Under the pieces are notes generated by a model. The model made no database searches, was not told the DNA's origin, and saw nothing but the letters and a program-made list of their open reading frames with translations. A stretch of 10,900 nt of DNA from a virus (lineage: Duplodnaviria > Heunggongvirae > Uroviricota > Caudoviricetes): the IMG/VR virus record IMGVR_UViG_2579778968_000008; one strand, written 5' to 3'. The position numbers and the translations under genes were made by a program. Positions 1 to 10,900 of the stretch are shown in pieces (within the stretch, counting starts at the first letter, position 1; every line of letters begins with the position of its first letter).

Positions 1-1320
1 ATGAGGTTTGGGTACATTGCTTTGGGTACACCCCCTATTCAAAGTTTGGATATTCGCAAAATGCCAAAACTAACAGACATGCAGATCCGCGCATGGATTA
101 AGAGCGGAGAGCGATTCGAGGGGCGGGCAGACGGTAACGGTTTATACCTACGTTACCGTGAAGCCGACAAAACCCCCACATGGAGATTCCGCTATAAACT
201 CGCAGGGAAGTCCCGCGCCATGCTAATTGGTTCGTATAGCGAGCTATCACTATCAAAGGCCAGAGAGACAGCCAAAGAGCTATCGGCTCGCGTTGCGCTG
301 GGCTATGACGTTGCAGGAGAGAAGCAGAAGCGCAAAACCGAAGCACTGGCGAAGATGGAAGCAGAGAAGAACGCTATGCGCGTTTCAGAGCTTGCCGCTG
401 AATACTTTGAGCGTCAGATACTTCCGAGATGGAAACATCCCGATATCCTTCGCCGGAGAATTGATAAGGATATTAACCCCTGCATTGGGCATATGAAGGT
501 AGAGGACGTTAAGCCACGCCACATTGACGACATGTTGAAAGGTATCGTTGACCGAGGAGCACCAACGATAGCAACAGATGTATTACGCTGGACACGCCGT
601 ATCTTTGACTACGGGATAAAACGCCACGCTCTGGAGATAAACCCTTGTTCAGCGTTTGAAGTATCTGATGCTGGTGGTAAAGAGGTTTCCCGCGACCGTT
701 GGCTAACTCGCGATGAGCTTATCAGGCTATTCGAGGCTATGCGCACCGCAAAAGGATTCAGCCGCCAGAACGAACTGACATTTAAGCTATTGCTGGCACT
801 ATGCGTTCGTAAGATGGAGTTATGCGCCGCACGATGGGAAGAGTTTGATTTAGATGGTGCGGTATGGCATTTGCCGGAAGAACGCAGCAAAAACGGAGAC
901 CCTATTGATATACCTCTACCTTCTCCAGCCGTTGAATGGTTGAGAGAACTACACACCTTTTCATGTAATAGCGCATGGGTGCTTCCAGCCAGGAAGATGC
1001 AAAACAGAATGATCCCACATATTCAGGAAAGCACTTTGCCCGTAGCACTGGCTAAGGTTCGCGCCGAAATGCCGGATGTGCCTAATTTCACGATTCACGA
1101 CTTCCGACGCACCGCACGTACTCATTTAGCAGCGTTGGGTGTTGATCCTGTCGTGGCGGAACGATGCCTCAATCATCGCATTAAGGGCGTAGAGGGGATT
1201 TATAACCGCCATCAGTATTTTGATGAGCGTAAAGCAGCACTGGCACAGTGGGCTGATCTGCTGGTGGCACTGGAAAGCGGAAAAGACTACAACGTAACGC
1301 CTCTCAGAAGGGCGAACTAA
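1..1320 (+). CDS. int: P4-family tyrosine integrase (site-specific recombinase)
   Basis: 439-codon ORF. N-terminal segment MPKLTDMQIRAWIK...GNGLYLRYR resembles the arm-binding domain of P4-like integrases; C-terminal HDFRRT (His-x-x-Arg box) and GIYNRHQY (candidate catalytic Tyr). The true start is probably the ATG at 61 (MPKLTD...); the first 20 codons may be in-frame read-in from the flank. Integrases of this family sit next to a tRNA/tmRNA att site, which would lie upstream of the window. Confidence 0.9.
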   Translation: MRFGYIALGTPPIQSLDIRKMPKLTDMQIRAWIKSGERFEGRADGNGLYLRYREADKTPTWRFRYKLAGKSRAMLIGSYSELSLSKARETAKELSARVALGYDVAGEKQKRKTEALAKMEAEKNAMRVSELAAEYFERQILPRWKHPDILRRRIDKDINPCIGHMKVEDVKPRHIDDMLKGIVDRGAPTIATDVLRWTRRIFDYGIKRHALEINPCSAFEVSDAGGKEVSRDRWLTRDELIRLFEAMRTAKGFSRQNELTFKLLLALCVRKMELCAARWEEFDLDGAVWHLPEERSKNGDPIDIPLPSPAVEWLRELHTFSCNSAWVLPARKMQNRMIPHIQESTLPVALAKVRAEMPDVPNFTIHDFRRTARTHLAALGVDPVVAERCLNHRIKGVEGIYNRHQYFDERKAALAQWADLLVALESGKDYNVTPLRRAN

Positions 1321-1414
1321 CTGAATAGATTGAGCCTAGCCCGACGGGGCGAAAAGCGGAAAGCCTTACCGCCTGGCTCAATTCTTTTTAAGGCAAAGCG
1401 TAGAAGGTGACGCA

Positions 1415-2296
1415 ATGAGTAAGTTATTTAAGCTCAAAGAATGGCTGACGTTATCGGAAGCCTCAGAGAGGCTATCAGTATTCTTAGGTGAAAAGGTTTC
1501 TGTTGCTGATTGTTTGCAGCTGGCATTGGATAAGCACATAACCATTTCAGCAATTTTTAACGAGAGCCAGCACGCTATCCATGCGAAGGTAATCACAACG
1601 ACCCAACGTAAGCAGTTTTCTAAATTCATTATCCGGACAACAGAGGATGGGGCCTATATTGGCCTTATAGGGGAAGATCGCTTTGTCTCAAACAGTGAAT
1701 TAGATTTTGAGTATGAAGATATTGAAAGGTACGGTGATGTTTTCACGTTGCGTCATGGGATCTATGACCTGCCTATGCTGGGGGCCGAAGAATTGGATGT
1801 CATGCATCAGCTTGATTTGAACGCTGGAAGAGCGCCTCGGGAATTCTGCAATATGGAGGGGCCATTTTTGATAACTCCATATGGCTTGGTGAATATCTTA
1901 AACCAGTTCAATCCTTGGATGTTAAAGACGAATGATAGCGGCTCACCAGAGTATTACGATAAGGTAAAAAACGAGTTCGTAGATTTGAGCCATGAAGGCT
2001 ACCGCGGGTTTCTTTATCCGGCCGATGCTTTGGGCGATTTTGAGCTTGTATTCAGAAGAGAAAACATCGAAAAGTTTGAGCAAGAAAATTCTGGTGATGG
2101 CCAACAATCGCTAAAACTTGATGAGAGCCTGCATGTAATAGGTGCTCTGCTTAACGCCTTAAAAAAAGCTGAACCAGCATCTAAGCGATGGACGCAAGAG
2201 GCGCTAAAGGCGGAGATGATAGATCACGGGGTTAACCTAAGCCCTCGACATCTCGATAAATATTTCTCGGCAGCGAATAAATCTTTTAAATCATAG
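1415..2296 (+). CDS. hypothetical protein, 293 aa, AT-richer cargo gene between int and alpA
   Basis: Uninterrupted ORF with a Shine-Dalgarno-like AAGGTGA just upstream of the ATG; visibly AT-richer than the backbone genes; no motif I recognise (no Walker A, HExxH or nuclease signature). Confidence 0.6.
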   Translation: MSKLFKLKEWLTLSEASERLSVFLGEKVSVADCLQLALDKHITISAIFNESQHAIHAKVITTTQRKQFSKFIIRTTEDGAYIGLIGEDRFVSNSELDFEYEDIERYGDVFTLRHGIYDLPMLGAEELDVMHQLDLNAGRAPREFCNMEGPFLITPYGLVNILNQFNPWMLKTNDSGSPEYYDKVKNEFVDLSHEGYRGFLYPADALGDFELVFRRENIEKFEQENSGDGQQSLKLDESLHVIGALLNALKKAEPASKRWTQEALKAEMIDHGVNLSPRHLDKYFSAANKSFKS

Positions 2297-2405: not shown

Positions 2406-2609
2406 ATGGCTACAGACAACATCCCCAACACAGGTTACATCCGCCGCTTTCGCCTGGCTGAATTGCTGGGCGTTAGTGTATCCACCATCGACCGTAAAGT
2501 AAGAAACGGTTCACTACCACGTCCGGTAAAGCTGGGCGAGAAGATTACCGCCTTTGATGCGGTAGAGATTAACAACTGGCTGGCAGAACGTCGGGGAAAG
2601 GTGGCTTGA
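2406..2609 (+). CDS. alpA: AlpA-family phage transcriptional regulator (helix-turn-helix)
   Basis: 67 aa; RLAELLGVSVSTIDRKVRNGSLPRPVKLGEKITAFDAVEINNWLAER matches the AlpA/Vis fold pattern (HTH followed by the PxPVKLG...W motif); AAAGGAG RBS about 10 nt upstream; its stop overlaps the next start (TGATG). Confidence 0.85.
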   Translation: MATDNIPNTGYIRRFRLAELLGVSVSTIDRKVRNGSLPRPVKLGEKITAFDAVEINNWLAERRGKVA

Positions 2610-3040
2610 TGAAAAAGAAAAACCGCCCATTACAGGCGGCTAACTCAGATATTCGCACGTCTGATATTACGCCGACCACCAGCCCGGTACAAGTACCTAG
2701 GCGTACCCCAAAGAAACACCGCGCCCGCGTCTATATGCTGCGTACTGGTATAGAGGGATGGACAGAAAACGACATTCTGCGATATTGCCGCCTTTCATCT
2801 GGAAGGAACTACGCCAGCGAGTTAGAGCGCAGGCTTGATATTCAGCTTGAGCGTATAGACGAAAAGAACCCCGACGGGATAGGGTCACATTTACGCTATC
2901 GCTTTACCGGGCGCGGTGACGTTCTAAAAGTTATTCGGCTTGTGAACCATAACGCCGACGCTGGCGGCTATCAGGGACTTTCTCAGCAGGAAATTGCCGA
3001 CATTCTGAAACTCTACCCGGACGCGTTTAACGCCGCCTAA
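2609..3040 (+). CDS. hypothetical protein (about 143 aa), translationally coupled to alpA
   Basis: ATG at 2609 overlaps the alpA stop codon; basic N-terminus (RRTPKKHRAR); no recognisable catalytic motif. Confidence 0.55.
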   Translation: MKKKNRPLQAANSDIRTSDITPTTSPVQVPRRTPKKHRARVYMLRTGIEGWTENDILRYCRLSSGRNYASELERRLDIQLERIDEKNPDGIGSHLRYRFTGRGDVLKVIRLVNHNADAGGYQGLSQQEIADILKLYPDAFNAA

Positions 3041-3052
3041 CGGAGACTGAAA

Positions 3053-3886
3053 ATGAACATCGAAAAAAGCAGATTAATTTCTGAGGCCGCCCCTCATCTG
3101 AACGCCTATCAGGGCACAATTAACGGTAATGAATTTGCCGCAATTGTCCCGGTTATTCCTGGTCATATCGGTGGGCGTGAAACCAATATTGTTAGCGCAA
3201 AAGCGTTACACAAAGCGTTGGGCGTGGGAAAAGACTTCTCTACATGGATCACTGATCGCATCTCTGAATATGACTTCACCATTGGGCACGATTACTCAGT
3301 CCATAAAACTATTTCCCCAAATCTGGGGAAAAGCCCGAATGGCGCGGCTTACAGCAAGATTAAGCAGTCTGGCAGACCCGGCAAAGACTATCTGTTAAGT
3401 GTCGGAATGGCGAAAGAACTGGCGATGGTCGAACGCACCAAACAGGGCCGCGCTATCCGCCGTTATTTCATCCAGTGCGAGGAAGAATTACAGCGTAGCG
3501 TGCCTGAAATCGCCGCCCGCTATCGTCGCCAGCTAAAAGCCCGTATCAGTGCCGCAAACAACTTTAAGCCAATGTGCGATGCGCTGAATATGGCCCGTGC
3601 CGAGCTGGGTAAAACGACGCAGCAGCGCCACTACAGCAACGAGAGCAACATGATCGCCCGTATCGTGCTGGGTGGCATGACGGCGAAGCAGTGGGCGCAG
3701 GCAAATGGCATTACTGGCGAACCTCGCGACCATATGAACGCAGCACAGCTTGAACACCTCTCCTATCTGGAAAGCACCAATATCACGCTAATTGATATGG
3801 GCATGGAATATGAGCAGCGCAAAGGAGAACTCACCCGCCTGTCGCAACGCTGGCTCACTAAACGTCTGGAGGTAAACCATGCGTAA
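3053..3886 (+). CDS. phage antirepressor-like protein (AntA/AntB-type N-terminal domain)
   Basis: 277 aa; N-terminal segment SAKALHKALGVGKDFSTWITDRISEYDFTIGHDYSV resembles the AntA/AntB antirepressor domain signature (ARELHEFL...F..WI..RI.EY.F..G.DF); GGAGA RBS upstream. Confidence 0.7.
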   Translation: MNIEKSRLISEAAPHLNAYQGTINGNEFAAIVPVIPGHIGGRETNIVSAKALHKALGVGKDFSTWITDRISEYDFTIGHDYSVHKTISPNLGKSPNGAAYSKIKQSGRPGKDYLLSVGMAKELAMVERTKQGRAIRRYFIQCEEELQRSVPEIAARYRRQLKARISAANNFKPMCDALNMARAELGKTTQQRHYSNESNMIARIVLGGMTAKQWAQANGITGEPRDHMNAAQLEHLSYLESTNITLIDMGMEYEQRKGELTRLSQRWLTKRLEVNHA

Positions 3887-4061
3887 CCATAATCCGATGC
3901 CGGGAAGCCGTTACAAGGATTCGCACGGGGCTGTAGTGACCGTACAGCGCGTCGAGCATAACCGAGTGACCTTTTACCGCGAGGGCTATCAGTCGCCATG
4001 TGTTCAGCCTTTGGAGAGATTCGTTAATGAGTTCGTGGAGGTGCGCCGTGATACTGAATGA
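3879..4061 (+). CDS. small protein, 60 aa, possibly DUF4222-like
   Basis: Start overlaps the antirepressor stop (ATGCGTAA); motif RYKDSHGAVVTVQRVEHNRVTFYREGYQSPCVQPLERF is reminiscent of small DUF4222-type proteins found in enterobacterial prophage islands. Confidence 0.5.
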   Translation: MRNHNPMPGSRYKDSHGAVVTVQRVEHNRVTFYREGYQSPCVQPLERFVNEFVEVRRDTE

Positions 4062-4540
4062 ACCTGCCGCCCAGAAAGAAGCCTTTAATCTGGCTAACCT
4101 GTTAACAAATGTTAACCCTTACAACCTTATAAAACCAAAGGTCGCGAACGGCTGTCTGTTATCAATTGTTATGGTTAATGACTTAGCAAAACTTAGCCTG
4201 AACCTCACAAAACCTGACATCCACGCACGGGGAATGACGACAAATGATGACATTTTAAACCAAGAAATAATCACCTCTAAAAAGCTGATTGTGGGGAATA
4301 AATTCCCCCTGCTGGCTGGTGGTATGAACTGGATTGCTACCGTTGTGAACCGTTCCACATCGACTTTCGCGACAAATACGCGTGCGCTGGAAGATTTATT
4401 AGGGGTCGTTACGCGAGAAGGTGAGTATTCGGAGTCCATAAAAAAGGGCTTGCCGACTATCGCCAACACGGTTTATGGTTATAGCGCACCAGCAAAATCT
4501 GGCGCCGGGCGTGGAAACCCGAACACACTAAGGGCGACAC

Positions 4541-4563
4541 AGACGCCGAAAGCGTCTTTTTTT
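4541..4563 (+). terminator. candidate intrinsic terminator or attenuator hairpin (6-bp stem AGACGC/GCGTCT, loop CGAAA, then a run of 7 T)
   Basis: Perfect inverted repeat immediately followed by TTTTTTT on the + strand; lies inside the 314-codon open frame listed in the ORF track. Confidence 0.4.
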
Positions 4564-4730
4564 GTGTCCGATCACTACGCACATCAAATCAGCGGCCTCG
4601 TCCGTACTGTATCTATGGTGGCGTTAGTGGGGCTACGTTCGCGTAGGCCGGTTTCCTTTGTGTCCGGTATTTCCACCCCTGCTAACGTCACCGCCATTTC
4701 AGAGCGTGGAAACTCAGGCGGTGACTCCTT
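4564..4730 (+). ncRNA. candidate structured leader / C4-CI-like antisense immunity RNA with an anti-Shine-Dalgarno loop
   Basis: Three hairpins in 170 nt: 4631-4649 (stem GGCTACG/CGTAGGCC with a UUCG tetraloop); 4648-4667 (CCGG stem whose loop contains TCCTTTGTGT); 4687-4725 (perfect 9-bp stem GTCACCGCC/GGCGGTGAC). The loop TCCTTTGTGT (4654-4663) is a perfect 10-nt reverse complement of ACACAAAGGA (4733-4742), which overlaps the AAGGAGG Shine-Dalgarno of the downstream Icd-like gene. A second partial copy TTTGTGTCC sits at 4561-4569. Confidence 0.35.
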
Positions 4731-4752
4731 AAACACAAAGGAGGCTGCCATA

Positions 4753-4944
4753 ATGGCTACTACCCCTACCCAAAAACCATCATTTATCTGGTTAATCGCA
4801 GCAGTTCGCCGCGATATGCCGACAATTACCGCCAAAATTCACCATATCGCCGCAGAGACTGAGCAGGAAGCCCGCCGCATTCTGGCGCGGGATCACGTTT
4901 GCTTTTTTGCCGGACGTATTCGCACAGGGGGCGCACATGCTTAA
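4753..4944 (+). CDS. Icd-like small protein (host cell division inhibitor Icd-like family)
   Basis: 63 aa starting at ATG 4753, with a strong AAGGAGG RBS 8 nt upstream; MATTPTQKPSFIWLIAAVRRD...ETEQEARRILARDHVCFFAGRIR fits the pattern I recall for Icd-like proteins (F.W...A..R...TE.EARR.LA.D...FA.R). In frame with, and the C-terminal part of, the 314-codon ORF in the track. Confidence 0.55.
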   Translation: MATTPTQKPSFIWLIAAVRRDMPTITAKIHHIAAETEQEARRILARDHVCFFAGRIRTGGAHA

Positions 4945-5116
4945 TTACTTCCGTGTTGCAGGATGCGCCACCGCCCGGAGCGGCGAATTAGTCGAGTTCG
5001 TTTATATCGTTGACGCCCGCAGCGCGATCAGCGCCAAAGCTGAGGCGCTAAATCAGGCCAGAAATGAACGCCTTTCCCACATCCAGATTACCCGCGTTCG
5101 TGAGGTGGCGGCATGA
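4937..5116 (+). CDS. hypothetical small protein (about 59 aa)
   Basis: ATG at 4937 overlaps the Icd-like stop (ATGCTTAA); its stop overlaps the next start (ATGA at 5113); first member of a coupled gene chain. Confidence 0.45.
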   Translation: MLNYFRVAGCATARSGELVEFVYIVDARSAISAKAEALNQARNERLSHIQITRVREVAA

Positions 5117-5427
5117 GCATGTATGACGATTTAGTGTCCTGCAAATTTGATGGTTGTACACCTGATGATCTGAACGGAATTGAGAGCTGCGCCAGTGATG
5201 CCGTGGATGATTTAATGCTGGGCGTAAGTGCCATTGGTAGCCTCATGTTCTGGGCGGCTGGTAGCGATGGCTACCCGGAGGAAAGCGCTAAGGCTGATAT
5301 GTACAGATTAGGCGCAATGCTGGGACATATCGGAGAAGTTGCGCGGGCGCTGAACGATAGCGCTGCAAACGCCGCATTCTTGCGCTCAATCAGTGAAAAA
5401 GAAGCCAAAGGGAGGGCGGGCAAATGA
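5113..5427 (+). CDS. hypothetical protein, 104 aa
   Basis: ATGA start/stop overlap on both sides; GC-rich backbone composition. Confidence 0.6.
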   Translation: MSMYDDLVSCKFDGCTPDDLNGIESCASDAVDDLMLGVSAIGSLMFWAAGSDGYPEESAKADMYRLGAMLGHIGEVARALNDSAANAAFLRSISEKEAKGRAGK

Positions 5428-5687
5428 ACATAACTACCATCTATCGCCACCCGGCAGAGCTGGAAGCCGAAGCGATGTTATCCCGCGAGCAGGCTTACCC
5501 GGATGATTTTACGCTGGCAGACCGAACGGCAGAACGCATGACCCGCGCCCGCAATGGGCTGGCTCACGTTATGACCGAATTAGCCCCGCACATGGACGCA
5601 GAGCAAACAGCAGCCGTCCAGTGCTGGCTGATGAAGGTTTTGGCTATTGTCGATGCCACCCTGATTGATGCGGAGGGCAGCGCATGA
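5424..5687 (+). CDS. hypothetical protein, 87 aa
   Basis: ATGA overlaps with neighbours on both sides; backbone composition. Confidence 0.6.
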   Translation: MNITTIYRHPAELEAEAMLSREQAYPDDFTLADRTAERMTRARNGLAHVMTELAPHMDAEQTAAVQCWLMKVLAIVDATLIDAEGSA

Positions 5688-6310
5688 GCAACGCACCGAC
5701 CATTAAATCGGGAAGTGCCGACTTATTACACGCCGAAGCCACACCGCACGGCGTCAATATCATGACCCGCAATGATGCCGGGGGATATGAGCAGGTTGCT
5801 CTTATCAGCTACGAGAGCGCCGTGAACGGCCTTGACGCCGGAGAGTACGACGATAAGCCAGATATCGGATACGCCATTCATTTTGCCGTTGCTGATGGCG
5901 GGGCGCGTGGCTGGTTCGACTTCACCGCGCAGCATAACGTCACTATGTGGCGCTGGCTGATTGCTGCGACGTTCATTTCTGAGATGAAGCGCGAAAACGG
6001 CACAACCACGGTAACTGAGTCTGACGGCACTTCATCGCAGGTGGCGATTTACTCCAATGGCACGGCGGGGATTGTGGTTTACCCGTTCGCGGAACGTCTG
6101 GCGATGGCTAACAACATGGAGGGCGCAATGGTTGAGCGCTACGGCATTGAGCAGGGAACAGCGAACGCCATTGTTTTTTATCAGGCCATGATCGACACGG
6201 AGCGCGGCGAGTTGACCCCGTTCGGGCGTGAAACGCTTGCTGAACTTCACAACAGCTTTATAGCTGAACTGGATGAAAACGGCTGGCCTGAAATGCCGCT
6301 GGCGCACTGA
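5684..6310 (+). CDS. hypothetical protein, 208 aa
   Basis: ATGA overlap with the upstream gene; long ORF with backbone composition; no recognised motif. Confidence 0.65.
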   Translation: MSNAPTIKSGSADLLHAEATPHGVNIMTRNDAGGYEQVALISYESAVNGLDAGEYDDKPDIGYAIHFAVADGGARGWFDFTAQHNVTMWRWLIAATFISEMKRENGTTTVTESDGTSSQVAIYSNGTAGIVVYPFAERLAMANNMEGAMVERYGIEQGTANAIVFYQAMIDTERGELTPFGRETLAELHNSFIAELDENGWPEMPLAH

Positions 6311-6319
6311 GGGGGCGAC

Positions 6320-6661
6320 ATGATTACTAAAAATTTCCGACTTAATGCGCTGGCGAATAAGTATGCGTCGGCACTGTATAACCACATTACGGCTATCAAT
6401 GGTGGCAATTACTTCATGGTTGACGCGGCAGGCCAGCAAATCCGTGTGGAAATCGTCAATGGAGTAAAAGGCGTTCGCAGCCTGATCGATAGCTACACAC
6501 TGGCAGCCATGAAAGTGTCCTACCCGCAGTGGGAAACCGTGGGGATCGAGATTCTTGATCGTTGCGTCACTAATGACGGATTGACTGACGTAGGGCGTGA
6601 GATATGGCAAAGCATGGTTAAAGACATGGGCGCGACCGTGGCAGGGGGCAACCATGCGTAA
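6320..6661 (+). CDS. hypothetical protein, 113 aa
   Basis: GAGGGGG RBS 5-6 nt upstream of the ATG; stop overlaps the primase start (ATGCGTAA). Confidence 0.6.
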   Translation: MITKNFRLNALANKYASALYNHITAINGGNYFMVDAAGQQIRVEIVNGVKGVRSLIDSYTLAAMKVSYPQWETVGIEILDRCVTNDGLTDVGREIWQSMVKDMGATVAGGNHA

Positions 6662-9095
6662 TATCGACATTATCCGCGAAGTGACCAGTGCCGCCGCCGG
6701 GCGCTGGCCTTATGTGCTGGCTGGATTGTCTATCGACGTGCCTGATTCATCGCGCCGCCATTCTCCATGCCCTGCATGTGGTGGAAAAGACCGTTTCAGA
6801 TTCGACGACAACGGGCGCGGTAGCTTTATCTGCAATCAGTGTGGCGCTGGTGACGGTTTAGACCTGATTAAGAAGGTGAACAACTGCGACACCACAGAAG
6901 CGGCAAGGCTTGCCGCTGATGTGCTGGGTATTGATTACCGGGCAGCGGAAACCGACCCGGTGGCAGCGAGCCATAGAAGAGAGCAACTGGAAGCTGACCG
7001 CCAGCAGCGTGAGCAGGAGCGCCAGAAACAGGCAGCAGAGGATGCAGAGCAGCGAAGGGCTACGTTTGCCCGTCTGTATGCCGGAATGCGCCAGAGTGCC
7101 ACACAGGGAGAATCTGATTACCTGCAATCAAAAGGGCTGACCGGGTTTAACTATCCGGTTATGCCGGATGGTTCGTTATTGCTGGAGCTGGTGGACGAAT
7201 CCGGCGCAGTGGCAGCAGCGCAAACCATTACACCGCAGGGAGAGAAGCGACTCCTGACAGGTTCAGCAAAGCGCGGGGCATATCACGCCGTTAACGCACC
7301 GGAACAGCCGCAGGCGGTGATTATTGCCGAGGGGCTGGCAACCACTTTATCAGTCCACCTGATGCGCCCTGACGCGCTGACAGTGTGCGCCATTGATGCG
7401 GGCAACCTGCTACCCGTTGCCGAAGTGATGCGCCGGAAACACCCGCAGTCGCAAATTATCATTGCCGCAGATAACGACCACCAACAGGACGAACAGGCGA
7501 ACACGGGCAAAGATGCCGCAGAGAAAGCCGCCTTATCCGTGGCTGGCTGGGTGGCGCTGCCGCCGACAGACTACAAAGCCGACTGGGACGACTACCGCCA
7601 GCAAAACGGGCTGGAAGTCGCTACGGCTGCGTTTAACGATTCGATGTACCAGATTCAGGGGGAAGCCGTGAAACCACAACTACAGGCCATTGCGGGCGGT
7701 AAATCCCGCCGTAAAGCCGAAGTCGGAGATATTGCACAAATGGCAGCCAGCCAGAAAGCGCGGTTGCTTTCATCTCGATGGGATATGTTGGCGGTTAACC
7801 CTGATAGTGGCACTGTTTACTGCTACGAATCTGGCGTATGGGAGAAGCTACCAGACAGTGAATTAGAAAGGGTTATGGTGGCAATTTTCGACGAGCACGA
7901 AGCCCACTACACCGAAAAGGGGATTAAATCGGTTGTCGCAACCATGAAGCTGCAAATACCGGTAATTGGTGAGCGGAGCGGGGATTTGATTGGTTTTGAT
8001 AACGGCGTTTATGACCTCGCTACGCAGACGTTTTCCGCCCATTCGCCGGGTAACTGGCTGATGAACCACAATGGGATCACCTACACCCCGCCAGCGCCGG
8101 GGGAAAATATTACCACCAGCGCCCCCAATTTTACCCGTTGGCTGAATCATGCAACGGCTGGCGACCATCATAAGGCCGAGCGTATCAAAGCAGCCTTGTT
8201 TATGGTGCTGGCGAAGCGTCACGACTGGCAGCTATTCATTGAGATAACTGGCGAGGGCGGCAGTGGAAAATCCGTATTCAGCAGCATAGCAACCACGCTG
8301 GCAGGTGAACACAACACCGCCAGCGGTAGCATGATGACGCTGGACACCGCACGGGGACGGGCGCAGTTCGTAGGAAAAAGCCTGATTATTATGCCTGACC
8401 AGACCCGCTATGTTGGAGAGGGTGCGGGGATTAAAGCCATTACGGGCGGCGATCCGGTAGAGATTGATGGGAAATATGAAAAGCAGTTCACAACCGTGAT
8501 AAATGCCGTTGTTATGGCAACCAATAACGAGCCGATGACATTCACGGAGCGAAACGGGGGCATTGCCCGCCGCCGCGTGATATTCCCGTTTAATAACCCG
8601 GTATCAGACGCAGACAAAGACCCGGATTTAACCGCAAAAATCAGGCGAGAAATCCCGGTGATTATCCGCCACCTGCTAACCACCTTTGCCGACCAGAACA
8701 AAGCAAAGGCACTATTACTAGAGCAGCGCGATTCGCAGGAGGCGCTAGAGGTTAAACGCGGCACGGATCCGGTTGTCGATATGTGTGCGGCGCTTTTTTT
8801 CATGAACGAACCCAAAGGCATGATGATGGGCGGAGGTACATGGGCAGGCCAGCCAGAGCCGAGGACGTATCTTTATCATCTTTATCTGGCGTTTATGGAG
8901 TATCACGGTTTGGGTAAACCGCTTTCCGTCAATAAGTTTTCACGCGCCATAAAATCAGCAGCAAAAGAGTACCGAGCCAGCTACCTGACGAGAAGCATTA
9001 ACGGCAGAGCGCAAACCAACGTTGGCTATAACGAGAAGGCTGATGAGTTCATGCCACGCGCTTACGGTGTGGAGAGCGGGCAGAGTGATGATTGA
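6654..9095 (+). CDS. primase-helicase (P4 alpha-like: zinc-ribbon primase N-terminus, Toprim-like region, P-loop NTPase C-terminus)
   Basis: Cys-rich zinc-binding motif CPACGGKDRFRFDDNGRGSFICNQCG near the N-terminus; acidic Toprim-like segment (IIIAADNDHQQDEQANTGKDAAEKA); Walker A GEGGSGKS followed by hydrophobic-Asp Walker B-like segments. I prefer the ATG at 6654 (MRNIDIIREV) over the track start at 6597, because it overlaps the upstream stop in a coupling arrangement. Confidence 0.9.
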   Translation: MRNIDIIREVTSAAAGRWPYVLAGLSIDVPDSSRRHSPCPACGGKDRFRFDDNGRGSFICNQCGAGDGLDLIKKVNNCDTTEAARLAADVLGIDYRAAETDPVAASHRREQLEADRQQREQERQKQAAEDAEQRRATFARLYAGMRQSATQGESDYLQSKGLTGFNYPVMPDGSLLLELVDESGAVAAAQTITPQGEKRLLTGSAKRGAYHAVNAPEQPQAVIIAEGLATTLSVHLMRPDALTVCAIDAGNLLPVAEVMRRKHPQSQIIIAADNDHQQDEQANTGKDAAEKAALSVAGWVALPPTDYKADWDDYRQQNGLEVATAAFNDSMYQIQGEAVKPQLQAIAGGKSRRKAEVGDIAQMAASQKARLLSSRWDMLAVNPDSGTVYCYESGVWEKLPDSELERVMVAIFDEHEAHYTEKGIKSVVATMKLQIPVIGERSGDLIGFDNGVYDLATQTFSAHSPGNWLMNHNGITYTPPAPGENITTSAPNFTRWLNHATAGDHHKAERIKAALFMVLAKRHDWQLFIEITGEGGSGKSVFSSIATTLAGEHNTASGSMMTLDTARGRAQFVGKSLIIMPDQTRYVGEGAGIKAITGGDPVEIDGKYEKQFTTVINAVVMATNNEPMTFTERNGGIARRRVIFPFNNPVSDADKDPDLTAKIRREIPVIIRHLLTTFADQNKAKALLLEQRDSQEALEVKRGTDPVVDMCAALFFMNEPKGMMMGGGTWAGQPEPRTYLYHLYLAFMEYHGLGKPLSVNKFSRAIKSAAKEYRASYLTRSINGRAQTNVGYNEKADEFMPRAYGVESGQSDD

Positions 9096-9560: not shown

Positions 9561-9734
9561 ATGGCTATTTCAGTAAAGCCGGTATTGATAAGTGAGAAGC
9601 AAATGGAAGCGATAAAGAAAATTCAGGAGGAGCAGCGTAAAAAATCAGAGGTAGGAGTTGCGCCAACGATCCACGAAATTGCTCGGGGATTAATGGATAA
9701 GGCGCTGGCCTCACTGGCAAGCGAGGGCGCGTAA
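9561..9734 (+). CDS. small protein (57 aa), possible ribbon-helix-helix DNA-binding protein
   Basis: ATG at 9561 with AAGGGG RBS (the track's longer 9534 start would need TTG). N-terminus VKPVLISEKQMEAIKKI has the beta-strand-then-helix pattern of RHH (CopG/Arc-like) proteins; stop overlaps the start of the next gene (TAATG). Confidence 0.5.
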   Translation: MAISVKPVLISEKQMEAIKKIQEEQRKKSEVGVAPTIHEIARGLMDKALASLASEGA

Positions 9735-10405
9735 TGGGCGCCATTCACCAGATATATGAGCATGAAATGTTCTATAACTGGATAGGTGATGGTAAACGAT
9801 GTGTAGCATTCCACGAAGCGGGACATGCAGTAGCTGCATGGCTTATTCGCTTAGATATACAGGTTATCGCCGTTATGGATGAATACGGTTACGTTGCTGG
9901 CGAACATGTACATGAGGCCAAGTGTTTGGGTGTTGTTAAACACAGCATAATTCACAGCCACGATCTAGGGCGTTTGCGGGATAGTAAATCTGGTGTAGTT
10001 GGGCAGAATGGTAAAGTTATCCCTTTCATACGTTACTATGCGGATGGTATAAAGCGCGATGCAAAAAAGGCCGCTTTTGTATCCCTCGCCGGACCAGTAA
10101 GCGAAGCCCTTTACGAAAACAACGATATTTTCAACAAAAAGTATTCGCTACCTCATCGCTATGACATGGCTAACGTAAATGACATGCTCGATTTAATCTG
10201 CGCTACAGATAAGCAAATTAACAGGGAGTTAATGCTTTCTAAACTCGTTGAAAAGACCAAAGCCCTCATGGCTCAATACTGGTATGAAGTAGAAAAAATA
10301 GCGCATTTGCTTGAACGGGATAGCATTGTGAATGGTCGAAATGTTAGCTCGTTAATTGGCATCAACGTCATAGACCGGGCAACGCCATTTTTGCTGGTGG
10401 AATAA
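9734..10405 (+). CDS. standalone HExxH zinc metallopeptidase (FtsH-like HEAGHA motif, no ATPase domain)
   Basis: 223 aa; motif VAFHEAGHAVAAW at residues 24-36 closely resembles the FtsH/M41 active-site context (AYHEAGHA); no Walker A/B motifs; AT-richer than the backbone; translationally coupled to the small upstream gene. Confidence 0.65.
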   Translation: MGAIHQIYEHEMFYNWIGDGKRCVAFHEAGHAVAAWLIRLDIQVIAVMDEYGYVAGEHVHEAKCLGVVKHSIIHSHDLGRLRDSKSGVVGQNGKVIPFIRYYADGIKRDAKKAAFVSLAGPVSEALYENNDIFNKKYSLPHRYDMANVNDMLDLICATDKQINRELMLSKLVEKTKALMAQYWYEVEKIAHLLERDSIVNGRNVSSLIGINVIDRATPFLLVE

Positions 10406-10618: not shown

Positions 10619-10900
10619 ATGGTAAACGACAGTAAAGCCGAGGATCTGGAAGCAAAAGGGCTGTACCGACGCGCCGCAGCGCGATGGATGGAAGTCATGC
10701 TGTTATGCACCGAGGACGATGATCGGGAATGGATAAAGCGCCGCCGTGAAACGTGTCTGGAGAACGTGAAGCGCCCGCCCGTGAAGGTTGAGGACTTTGG
10801 CGACCTACATAAAGCTGTTACCGAAACGCAACACCGCATGGGGATAGCGCAACCGAACGGTAACGCCTTCCGGTTAAATGGCGGCAAGAGGCAAAGGTAG
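10619..10900 (+). CDS. PerC-like small transcriptional regulator (93 aa)
   Basis: LEAKGLYRRAAARWMEVML resembles the conserved core I recall for PerC-family regulators; GGGGGAG RBS about 8 nt upstream of the ATG; TATAAT hexamer at 10548-10553; stop codon at the window edge. Confidence 0.5.
   Translation: MVNDSKAEDLEAKGLYRRAAARWMEVMLLCTEDDDREWIKRRRETCLENVKRPPVKVEDFGDLHKAVTETQHRMGIAQPNGNAFRLNGGKRQR

Follow-up and report, generated by a model that had tools for sequence, protein, structure and literature searches.

The 10,900-nt stretch of the virus record IMGVR_UViG_2579778968_000008 (Caudoviricetes), called the window throughout, carries upstream of an Icd/Kil-like gene two adjacent RNA genes that very probably make up the C4/CI antisense immunity module of a P4-like satellite or an island of the phage-inducible chromosomal island (PICI) type, homologous to seqA-cI-seqC of P4 and to a1b1-c4-a2b2 of P1 and P7. 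Family membership, structure, four target sites that co-vary with the antisense RNA, gene order and a conserved overlapping reading frame support this reading directly. A C4/CI-type antisense immunity RNA had been proposed in a first-pass annotation made from the sequence alone, and every sequence feature named there was present where it had been placed. The covariance-model search with the Rfam C4 family that it suggested was strongly positive: when the window was scanned with Rfam, RF01695 (C4 antisense RNA) matched over its full length (model positions 1-87) at 4611-4698 with 81.1 bits against a gathering score of 45, and RF01394 (isrK) matched at 4486-4562 with 71.2 bits against a cut-off of 50. 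This score and the co-variation of loop and target described below bear out the proposed reading. The features of the module and its surroundings are collected in Table 1.

Folded alone, the C4 segment (4611-4698) adopts the structure of the model as its minimum free energy (MFE) fold (-38.9 kcal/mol, z -4.75), which has three helices, a long acceptor-like stem and, within it, a tetraloop hairpin and a GCCGG hairpin whose loop has 12 nt. Directly 3' of the long stem lies GCCA (4693-4696), which resembles the RCCA end of a tRNA and in which CC is invariant in 28 homologues. The UUCG hairpin (4633-4646) and the perfect 9-bp stem (4687-4695 with 4717-4725) reported in the first-pass annotation are both there. 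To evaluate conservation, we searched with a degenerate C4-core pattern, which yielded 120 viral contigs with 22 core types and 28 distinct C4 sequences; helix 3 was imposed by this pattern and is uninformative in the homologue test. Across the 28 distinct homologues, all 728 of 728 cells were paired (100%), with 12 compensatory pairs, as compared with 29-52% paired cells and at most one compensatory pair in slid controls. CI and C4 precursors are cut by RNase P (PMC5499578), and the mature form in the window would probably extend from about 4617 to about 4696.

The antisense segments of C4 are complementary to two sites downstream, one of which lies over the ribosome-binding site of the next gene. 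The core of the loop, b' (TCCTTTGTGT, 4654-4663), is the exact reverse complement of ACACAAAGGA (4733-4742), as had been claimed for the CCGG-closed hairpin, and this site (b2) overlaps the AAGGAGG of the Icd-like gene. The 10-mer occurs twice in the window, compared with 0.01 expected occurrences (200 shuffles). Two G.U pairs extend the duplex to 12 bp (4652-4663 with 4733-4744, -15.0 kcal/mol), so that it covers the whole AAGGAGG (4738-4744); the ATG at 4753 sits 8 nt downstream. A second complementarity connects a' UUUCCAC (4670-4676) with GUGGAAA at 4706-4712 (a2) and again at 4511-4517 (a1), within the upstream RNA. The antisense pairing to the downstream ribosome-binding site described in the first-pass annotation is thus real as far as b' and b2 are concerned, but incomplete, as there are two pairings and not one. 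When the b' loop and a' were paired together with the 66 nt downstream, the predicted energy was -23.1 kcal/mol, a value that none of 1000 shuffled targets reached (mean -11.9, sd 2.7).

The same pairing segments vary in concert among relatives. We found 13 b' variants and four a' variants among the 22 core types, and in about 20 specificity types, drawn from P1-like phages, P4-like satellites and PICIs, a'/a1/a2 and b'/b1/b2 change together. The a2 and b2 sites match a' and b' in almost all types shown, with a few types devoid of b2, b1 or a1, and b2 always ends in the AGG(A) of the ribosome-binding site. For 19 representatives, cognate duplexes had a mean energy of -22.6 kcal/mol, as against -14.5 +/- 3.0 kcal/mol for non-cognate ones. 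The window itself has b' CCUUUGUGU and a' UUUCCAC, unlike P4, whose b' is CCUGUGAA and whose a' is UUCUCAC. Because C4 of the window is predicted to pair with the P4 target at only -11.3 kcal/mol, compared with -23.1 kcal/mol on its own target, the window and P4 should be heteroimmune. As to a specificity shared with a helper phage, the lambdoid phages mEp460 and ST64B share a' UUUCCAC with the window and have a different b'; among the loci examined, we did not find a phage matching both a' and b'.

Comparison of related islands showed that this specificity can be replaced as a block. One relative (L126) has the same island backbone at the same yicC site, with 92-95% amino acid identity in the flanks of the long open reading frame (ORF) on both sides, and carries another cassette (6439-6680) with a' ACGCCAA and b' UCUCUGAUU, in which all four targets are changed to match. 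Conversely, two islands from E. coli and Klebsiella (L128 and L129; cassette at 6376-6640) have a C4 identical to that of the window next to a diverged upstream part of the ORF. Taken together, the swap in L126 and the C4 that L128 and L129 share with the window indicate that the cassette, at about 4486-4752 in the window, behaves as an exchangeable specificity module. An IsrK and C4 pair in this order, inside a long ORF, was also seen in the lambdoid phages mEp460 (L131, 1397-1585), ST64B (L132, 1397-1585) and phiP27 (L133, 1364-1552); in mEp460, the long ORF has a Phage_pRha domain past the Ash region.

Upstream of C4, the leader belongs to the IsrK family by its model score, and the fold of the single sequence alone was not significant (z -0.97). 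Its a1 is perfect, and its b1, ACACA[CU]AAGG (4523-4533), is imperfect, with a 2-nt bulge relative to the loop. A terminator scan identified an intrinsic terminator with a stem at 4541-4557 followed by a U-run. The first-pass annotation had described this hairpin and its T-run as terminator-like; more exactly, an IsrK/seqA-type RNA that carries a1 and b1 ends with it. The 48 nt between the terminator and C4 show the highest column entropy of the leader alignment. A second partial copy of the loop, TTTGTGTCC (4561-4569, also 4657-4665), had been pointed out just past the hairpin. This is a real 9-nt direct repeat but a coincidental one. Of 77 distinct related leaders, 57, with at least nine loop types among them, have a T-run and then GTGTC past the IsrK terminator, and one relative with the loop of the window does not have the upstream copy. 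The copy runs in the sense of the loop, which rules it out as a target, and being conserved whatever the loop type, it was rejected as an extra C4-related site.

A putative constitutive promoter, the counterpart of P4 PLE, lies at about 4450-4479, and the IsrK model starts 7 nt past its -10 element. We based this assignment on alignment conservation: TTGC.. and TAnnnT hexamers occupy the same alignment columns in related leaders.

Several observations weigh against the immunity-module reading. The bulge that interrupts b1 lowers its predicted pairing to -9.0 kcal/mol, compared with -15.0 kcal/mol for b2. Likewise, in a permissive scan, the c4-a1b1 model (RF03163) scored 38.9 bits at 4473-4525 (E 2.7e-8), under its gathering cut-off of 46.7, which points to a possibly smaller seqA-type contribution than P4 has. 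The bulged b1 is common to the E. coli and Klebsiella relatives L128 and L129 (per translated sequence) and is a stable variant, the viral contig L014 has the same loop as the window and a perfect b1, and relatives with the same C4 pass the c4-a1b1 model with 54.9 and 56.3 bits. A scan for consensus promoters flagged nothing upstream of IsrK, where the putative promoter has 8/12 matches and is sub-threshold. In the full leader (4486-4760), the C4 cloverleaf together with the IsrK hairpins reaches -100.2 kcal/mol compared with an MFE of -104.7 kcal/mol and is therefore not the favoured fold, which would make C4 production dependent on co-transcriptional folding or processing. Expression, processing and termination at this locus are predicted from homology.

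The promoter, partial termination, RNase P maturation, translational block, operon silencing, role of a1/b1 and override by eta are modelled here on P4, P1 and Gifsy-1, by homology. Transcription from the putative promoter would start at about G4486, and part of the transcripts would end at the IsrK terminator (4541-4562), giving a 77-nt IsrK/seqA-like RNA. Read-through transcripts would carry C4, which RNase P would excise at the tRNA-like acceptor stem with its 3' GCCA to give a stable RNA of about 80 nt. The b' and a' segments of this RNA would then pair with b2 and a2 (4706-4712) of new transcripts, masking the Shine-Dalgarno sequence of the Icd/Kil-like gene. The untranslated RNA would be terminated, as happens Rho-dependently in P1 and P4, keeping the small ORFs and the primase off; control of the downstream operon by C4 is presumed on this analogy. 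The island would stay quiescent, with immunity against superinfecting elements of its own type. The a1/b1 sites in IsrK would act as a second C4 site, either through an alternative fold in cis or as a decoy in trans, as shown for Gifsy-1 IsrK. Finally, transcripts from further upstream would be translated as the eta-like ORF described below and, as in P4, should override immunity.

The full-leader fold also brings in a second conformer. Its MFE structure combines long-range pairing in cis of a1/b1 with a'/b' and a perfect 9-bp helix in which a 9-mer further downstream, GGCGGUGAC (4717-4725), pairs with GUCACCGCC (4687-4695) from the 3' strand of the C4 acceptor stem. This alternative helix and the acceptor stem, hence the cloverleaf, are mutually exclusive. 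An inner GAG/CUC stem (4702-4704 with 4713-4715) tops the alternative hairpin and holds a2 in its apical loop, and b2 also contributes the 3' half to a CUCCUU/AAGGAG hairpin formed locally (4726-4743). In 11 sequence types, 7-9 of the 9 pairs of the helix are kept with compensatory changes, which makes a three-way co-variation between the 5' strand of C4, its 3' strand and the downstream 9-mer. The helix may be a conserved switch that, with the cis pairing, defines an alternative state of the read-through transcript, a proposal we regard as tentative and rather doubtful. If functional, each transcript would either supply repressor, as a cloverleaf that RNase P cuts, or serve as a non-processable messenger displaying a2, and translation of eta would tip the choice between these two fates; combined with cassette swapping at one integration site, the module would amount to a self-contained, exchangeable RNA bistable switch.

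These two predicted conformers have experimentally shown counterparts in structures A (inactive) and B (active) of Gifsy-1 isrK-orf45 (PMC4825925). The Gifsy-1 locus isrK, orf45 (STnc1160), anrP is alike in that IsrK has its own terminator and is followed by a C4-like processed RNA. The module might work mainly in the Gifsy-1 manner, with the read-through transcript folding into an inactive form in which a1b1 is paired with a'b' in cis. The 4.5 kcal/mol by which the MFE structure is more stable than the cloverleaf fold agrees with this, as does the requirement for the IsrK-like elements of two P4-like prophages in transposon-directed insertion-site sequencing (TraDIS) of S. Typhi (PMC3632133). 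However, such folding does not exclude the C4 model, b1 is imperfect in the window, and P4 genetics make CI the repressor (as summarised in PMC10111431 and PMC4825925). In addition, Gifsy-1 differs in having a downstream antirepressor gene, anrP, and AntQ-mediated growth arrest as output, whereas the window has kil/icd and a primase operon, with no anrP-like gene downstream of the module. In the Gifsy-1 locus, the short IsrK acts in trans to activate translation of the long transcript. We therefore consider it improbable that this is the main mode of action.

The closest parallel to the antisense immunity module of the window is P4 (statements on P4 mechanism are taken from PMC10111431, PMC4825925 and PMC3632133). 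In the P4 genome, the C4 model matched at 8420-8507 (CI RNA, 74.9 bits) and isrK at 8615-8692 (seqA region), consistent with the description of C4 and IsrK as structural homologues of CI and seqA (PMC3632133; PMC4825925). The two Rfam models and their order are common to both loci, with two-block pairings between antisense RNA and target upstream and downstream of the RNA. In both, the first downstream gene is a Kil/Icd homologue whose ribosome-binding site is covered by the target, the RNAs lie within a long in-frame eta-like ORF that matches Phage_ASH, and a P4-family primase closes the downstream operon; both elements also have a P4-type integrase and an AlpA-family regulator. The P4-type immunity order, with seqA, CI, seqC and kil nested in a longer eta ORF behind a putative promoter, is present in the window, and so is a co-oriented operon that encodes a replication primase and whose intervening ORFs overlap or abut. 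The Icd/Kil-like protein shares 41% identity with the Kil portion (65 aa) of the P4 'cI' ORF and 35% with Icd of phage D6, and its gene is under purifying selection (dN/dS 0.10 in a diverged comparison with L128). Apart from its specificity segments, the window differs from P4 in the interrupted b1 and in the genes between kil and the primase, which are unrelated small ORFs and not epsilon, orf151 and orf106 by annotation; none of them gave a Pfam or NCBIfam match. Neither the window nor the adjoining island has an annotated sid, delta or psu gene.

The first-pass annotation had likened the locus to both P1 immI and P4 CI, and pointed to an antirepressor-like gene in the same cluster. The P4 half of the comparison stands, with a replication operon downstream, and an AntA/AntB gene is indeed present (3053-3886). 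This gene, however, lies upstream and not downstream of icd, and the P1 order c4-icd-ant was not found. We compared P1 immI via the P1-like phages D6 and RCS47, which have the same pair of IsrK and C4 models in the same order and 68-70% nucleotide identity with the window over the two RNAs. As in P1 and P7, C4 is of the same family, b2 overlaps the ribosome-binding site of icd and the target gene is Icd-like; in P1, C4 represses icd and ant (PMC8198154). Yet a P1 immI-type circuit, in which C4 would control an antirepressor and decide prophage induction through Ant, is very unlikely here, despite the homology of C4 and the Icd-like gene to those of D6 and RCS47 and the AntA/AntB gene in the island. 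AntA precedes the putative IsrK promoter, an order conserved in related islands; Pfam and NCBIfam revealed no antirepressor domain downstream, in the ORFs between icd and the primase; and the window has no phage structural genes or C1-type repressor. Unlike P1/P7 immI, then, the window has no ant downstream and its output is a replication operon. P1-type loci moreover have stops in the eta frame, and the element in the window is an integrated island, not a plasmid prophage.

IsrK, C4, a2/b2 and the kil/icd gene all lie inside a single long ORF (4048-4944), with kil/icd in frame. Its GTG start at 4048 stands behind GGAGG and overlaps the end of the DUF4222 gene, an arrangement conserved in relatives, and more than 1,000 proteins similar to the 298-aa coding sequence (CDS) are called in databases. 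The Pfam domain Phage_ASH (PF10554) matches aa 144-243, equivalent to nt 4477-4776 and thus spanning IsrK and C4, with 82.6 bits. The same domain was found on P4 Eta (aa 23-147; L004 8330-8704) and on the Rha-type antirepressor ORF of mEp460 (L131 1385-1675). P4 eta begins upstream of the constitutive promoter and shares its frame with the overlapping kil; when eta is translated from a promoter further upstream, the termination specific to immunity is prevented (PMC10111431, summarising Forti et al. 1999). Compared with P4 eta, the ORF of the window has a different and longer N-terminal part, and is coupled to the DUF4222 gene, which is preceded by AntA. When set relative to C4, the eta frame is open from upstream of IsrK past b2 in 28 of 30 satellite-type loci, while the same frame is closed in 48 of 49 P1-type loci.

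It could be argued that the region does no more than encode a protein, with an Ash domain fused to Icd, and that the RNA motifs are incidental. The single CDS called by PGAP, the Phage_ASH score, the many similar proteins and the frame kept open in satellite-type loci would all fit. The substitution pattern does not: dN/dS was 0.56-0.60 in the N-terminal part and 0.57 in the part overlapping the RNAs, compared with 0.10 for kil, and variation showed no excess at third positions over 4486-4752 (entropy 0.58, 0.65 and 0.63 by codon position). Moreover, the stems contain compensatory double changes, P1-type loci keep the RNAs despite stops in the frame, and P4 CI has been reported as a processed RNA (PMC5499578; PMC10111431). 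We consequently regard a purely protein-coding region as highly unlikely. The opposite extreme, that the 298-aa CDS and its Phage_ASH match are pure artefacts of translated RNAs, was also dropped. The frame kept open, the same Pfam match on P4 Eta and the precedent of P4 eta, which is real (PMC10111431), indicate that the ORF is not a mere artefact. We conclude that ORF 4048-4944 is an overprinted counterpart of P4 eta under weak protein-level constraint, with the frame kept open for translation. The 'Ash' sequence would be dictated by the RNAs, the domain appearing to be a protein-level by-product of two RNA genes. A 116-aa antisense ORF (4119-4469, minus strand) overlaps the N-terminal part of the eta-like ORF and is absent from the RefSeq annotation.

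Finally, complementarity by chance between the hairpin loop and a purine-rich ribosome-binding site would fit the CCUU/AAGG part of the match, which any anti-Shine-Dalgarno-like loop should show, but is already refuted by the 10-mer count and the shuffled-target energies given above, and by the co-variation of loop and target at non-Shine-Dalgarno positions over 13 loop types.

The kind of element is already known and catalogued (Rfam; PMC3632133; PMC10111431), and the locus is an ordinary member with its own specificity class. Its layout fits the four zones of Gram-negative PICIs (Mageeney et al. 2023, PMC10111431): integrase and AlpA; a Bro-network zone with AntA and Ash together with C4 and isrK; the primase, with SSB in relatives; and a late zone. 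C4 and isrK matches in the Bro zones of such PICIs have been noted before, and eta, kil and immunity described (PMC10111431). Nothing substantive differs from these Bro-zone immunity RNAs, and the window looks like one more instance. Nothing in the locus changes the understanding of the C4/CI system, and its value is mainly for annotation. RefSeq lists one 298-aa 'Icd-like' CDS only, which leaves both RNA genes, and hence the immunity and specificity of the island, invisible; Ash-domain matches are useful for locating the RNA module but weak grounds for assigning a protein function. The locus also adds a specificity type, defined by its a' and b' segments, and this type and the cassette exchange are of modest relevance to incompatibility between satellites and between satellites and helpers. 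Points of residual interest are the co-varying alternative helix, the exchange of cassettes, and the RefSeq CDS and Phage_ASH match lying over RNA genes.

Table 1. Coordinates of the immunity module and neighbouring features in the window
Feature	Position	Strand	Basis or remark
Putative constitutive promoter, P4 PLE counterpart	4450-4479	+	-35 TTGCCG 4450-4455; 18-nt spacer; -10 TATGGT 4474-4479; predicted start near G4486
IsrK / P4 seqA-type leader RNA, 77 nt	4486-4562	+	RF01394; P4 seqA region matches same model
IsrK parts: hairpin 1; hairpin 2 with a1 GUGGAAA in loop; b1; terminator	a1 4511-4517; b1 4523-4533	+	
Variable spacer, IsrK terminator to C4	4563-4610	+	Highest column entropy in leader alignment, >1 bit
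C4 / P4 CI antisense RNA	4611-4698	+	RF01695, fold, homologue pairing
C4 acceptor-like stem, 16 bp	4617-4632 with 4677-4692	+	Followed by 3' GCCA
C4 UUCG hairpin	4633-4646	+	
C4 GCCGG/CCGGU hairpin	4647-4668	+	Stem 4647-4651 with 4664-4668; 12-nt loop = b' 4652-4663
C4 a' UUUCCAC	4670-4676	+	Single-stranded between GCCGG hairpin and outer stem
Alternative hairpin	4687-4725	+	GUCACCGCC (4687-4695) with GGCGGUGAC (4717-4725), perfect 9 bp
b2 target overlapping Shine-Dalgarno AAGGAGG (4738-4744)	4733-4744	+	10 nt exact and 2 G.U pairs to b'
Icd/Kil-like gene, 63 aa, first gene past C4	4753-4944	+	NCBIfam NF033153 phage_ICD_like, 73.1 bits vs 25
Long eta-like ORF, 298 aa as annotated	4048-4944	+	PGAP CDS WP_001565827.1, 'Icd-like'
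Co-oriented downstream operon	4937-9095	+	PGAP; five small ORFs and P4-family primase
Five small ORFs of the operon	4937-5116, 5113-5427, 5424-5687, 5684-6310, 6320-6661	+	All overlap or abut
P4-family primase	6654-9095	+	Co-oriented with module
P4-type integrase	61-1320		
int-alpA RNA	1329-1394	+	RF02996, 69.5 bits vs 35.8; directly past integrase stop codon
Hypothetical gene	1415-2296		
AlpA	2406-2609		
Hypothetical gene	2609-3040		
AntA/AntB antirepressor gene	3053-3886		Upstream of module
DUF4222	3879-4061		
Two hypothetical genes	9561-10405		
PerC	10619-10900		

Four E. coli genomes contain a chromosomal island identical to the window, inserted next to yicC, and islands of E. coli and Klebsiella have the same gene order at the same site. 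Parts of the 1-kb region were present in 123 of 5,426 complete genomes. The island sits between yicC and yicG (L001 4762-17100), with no tRNA gene annotated at the junction, and a direct-repeat search with a 12-nt seed found no att-like repeats. L128 and L129 likewise have the int-alpA RNA motif. In relatives, the primase is followed by an SSB gene, which is absent from the window, and the distal part of the island contains genes of the PerC and pRiA4b ORF-3 families.

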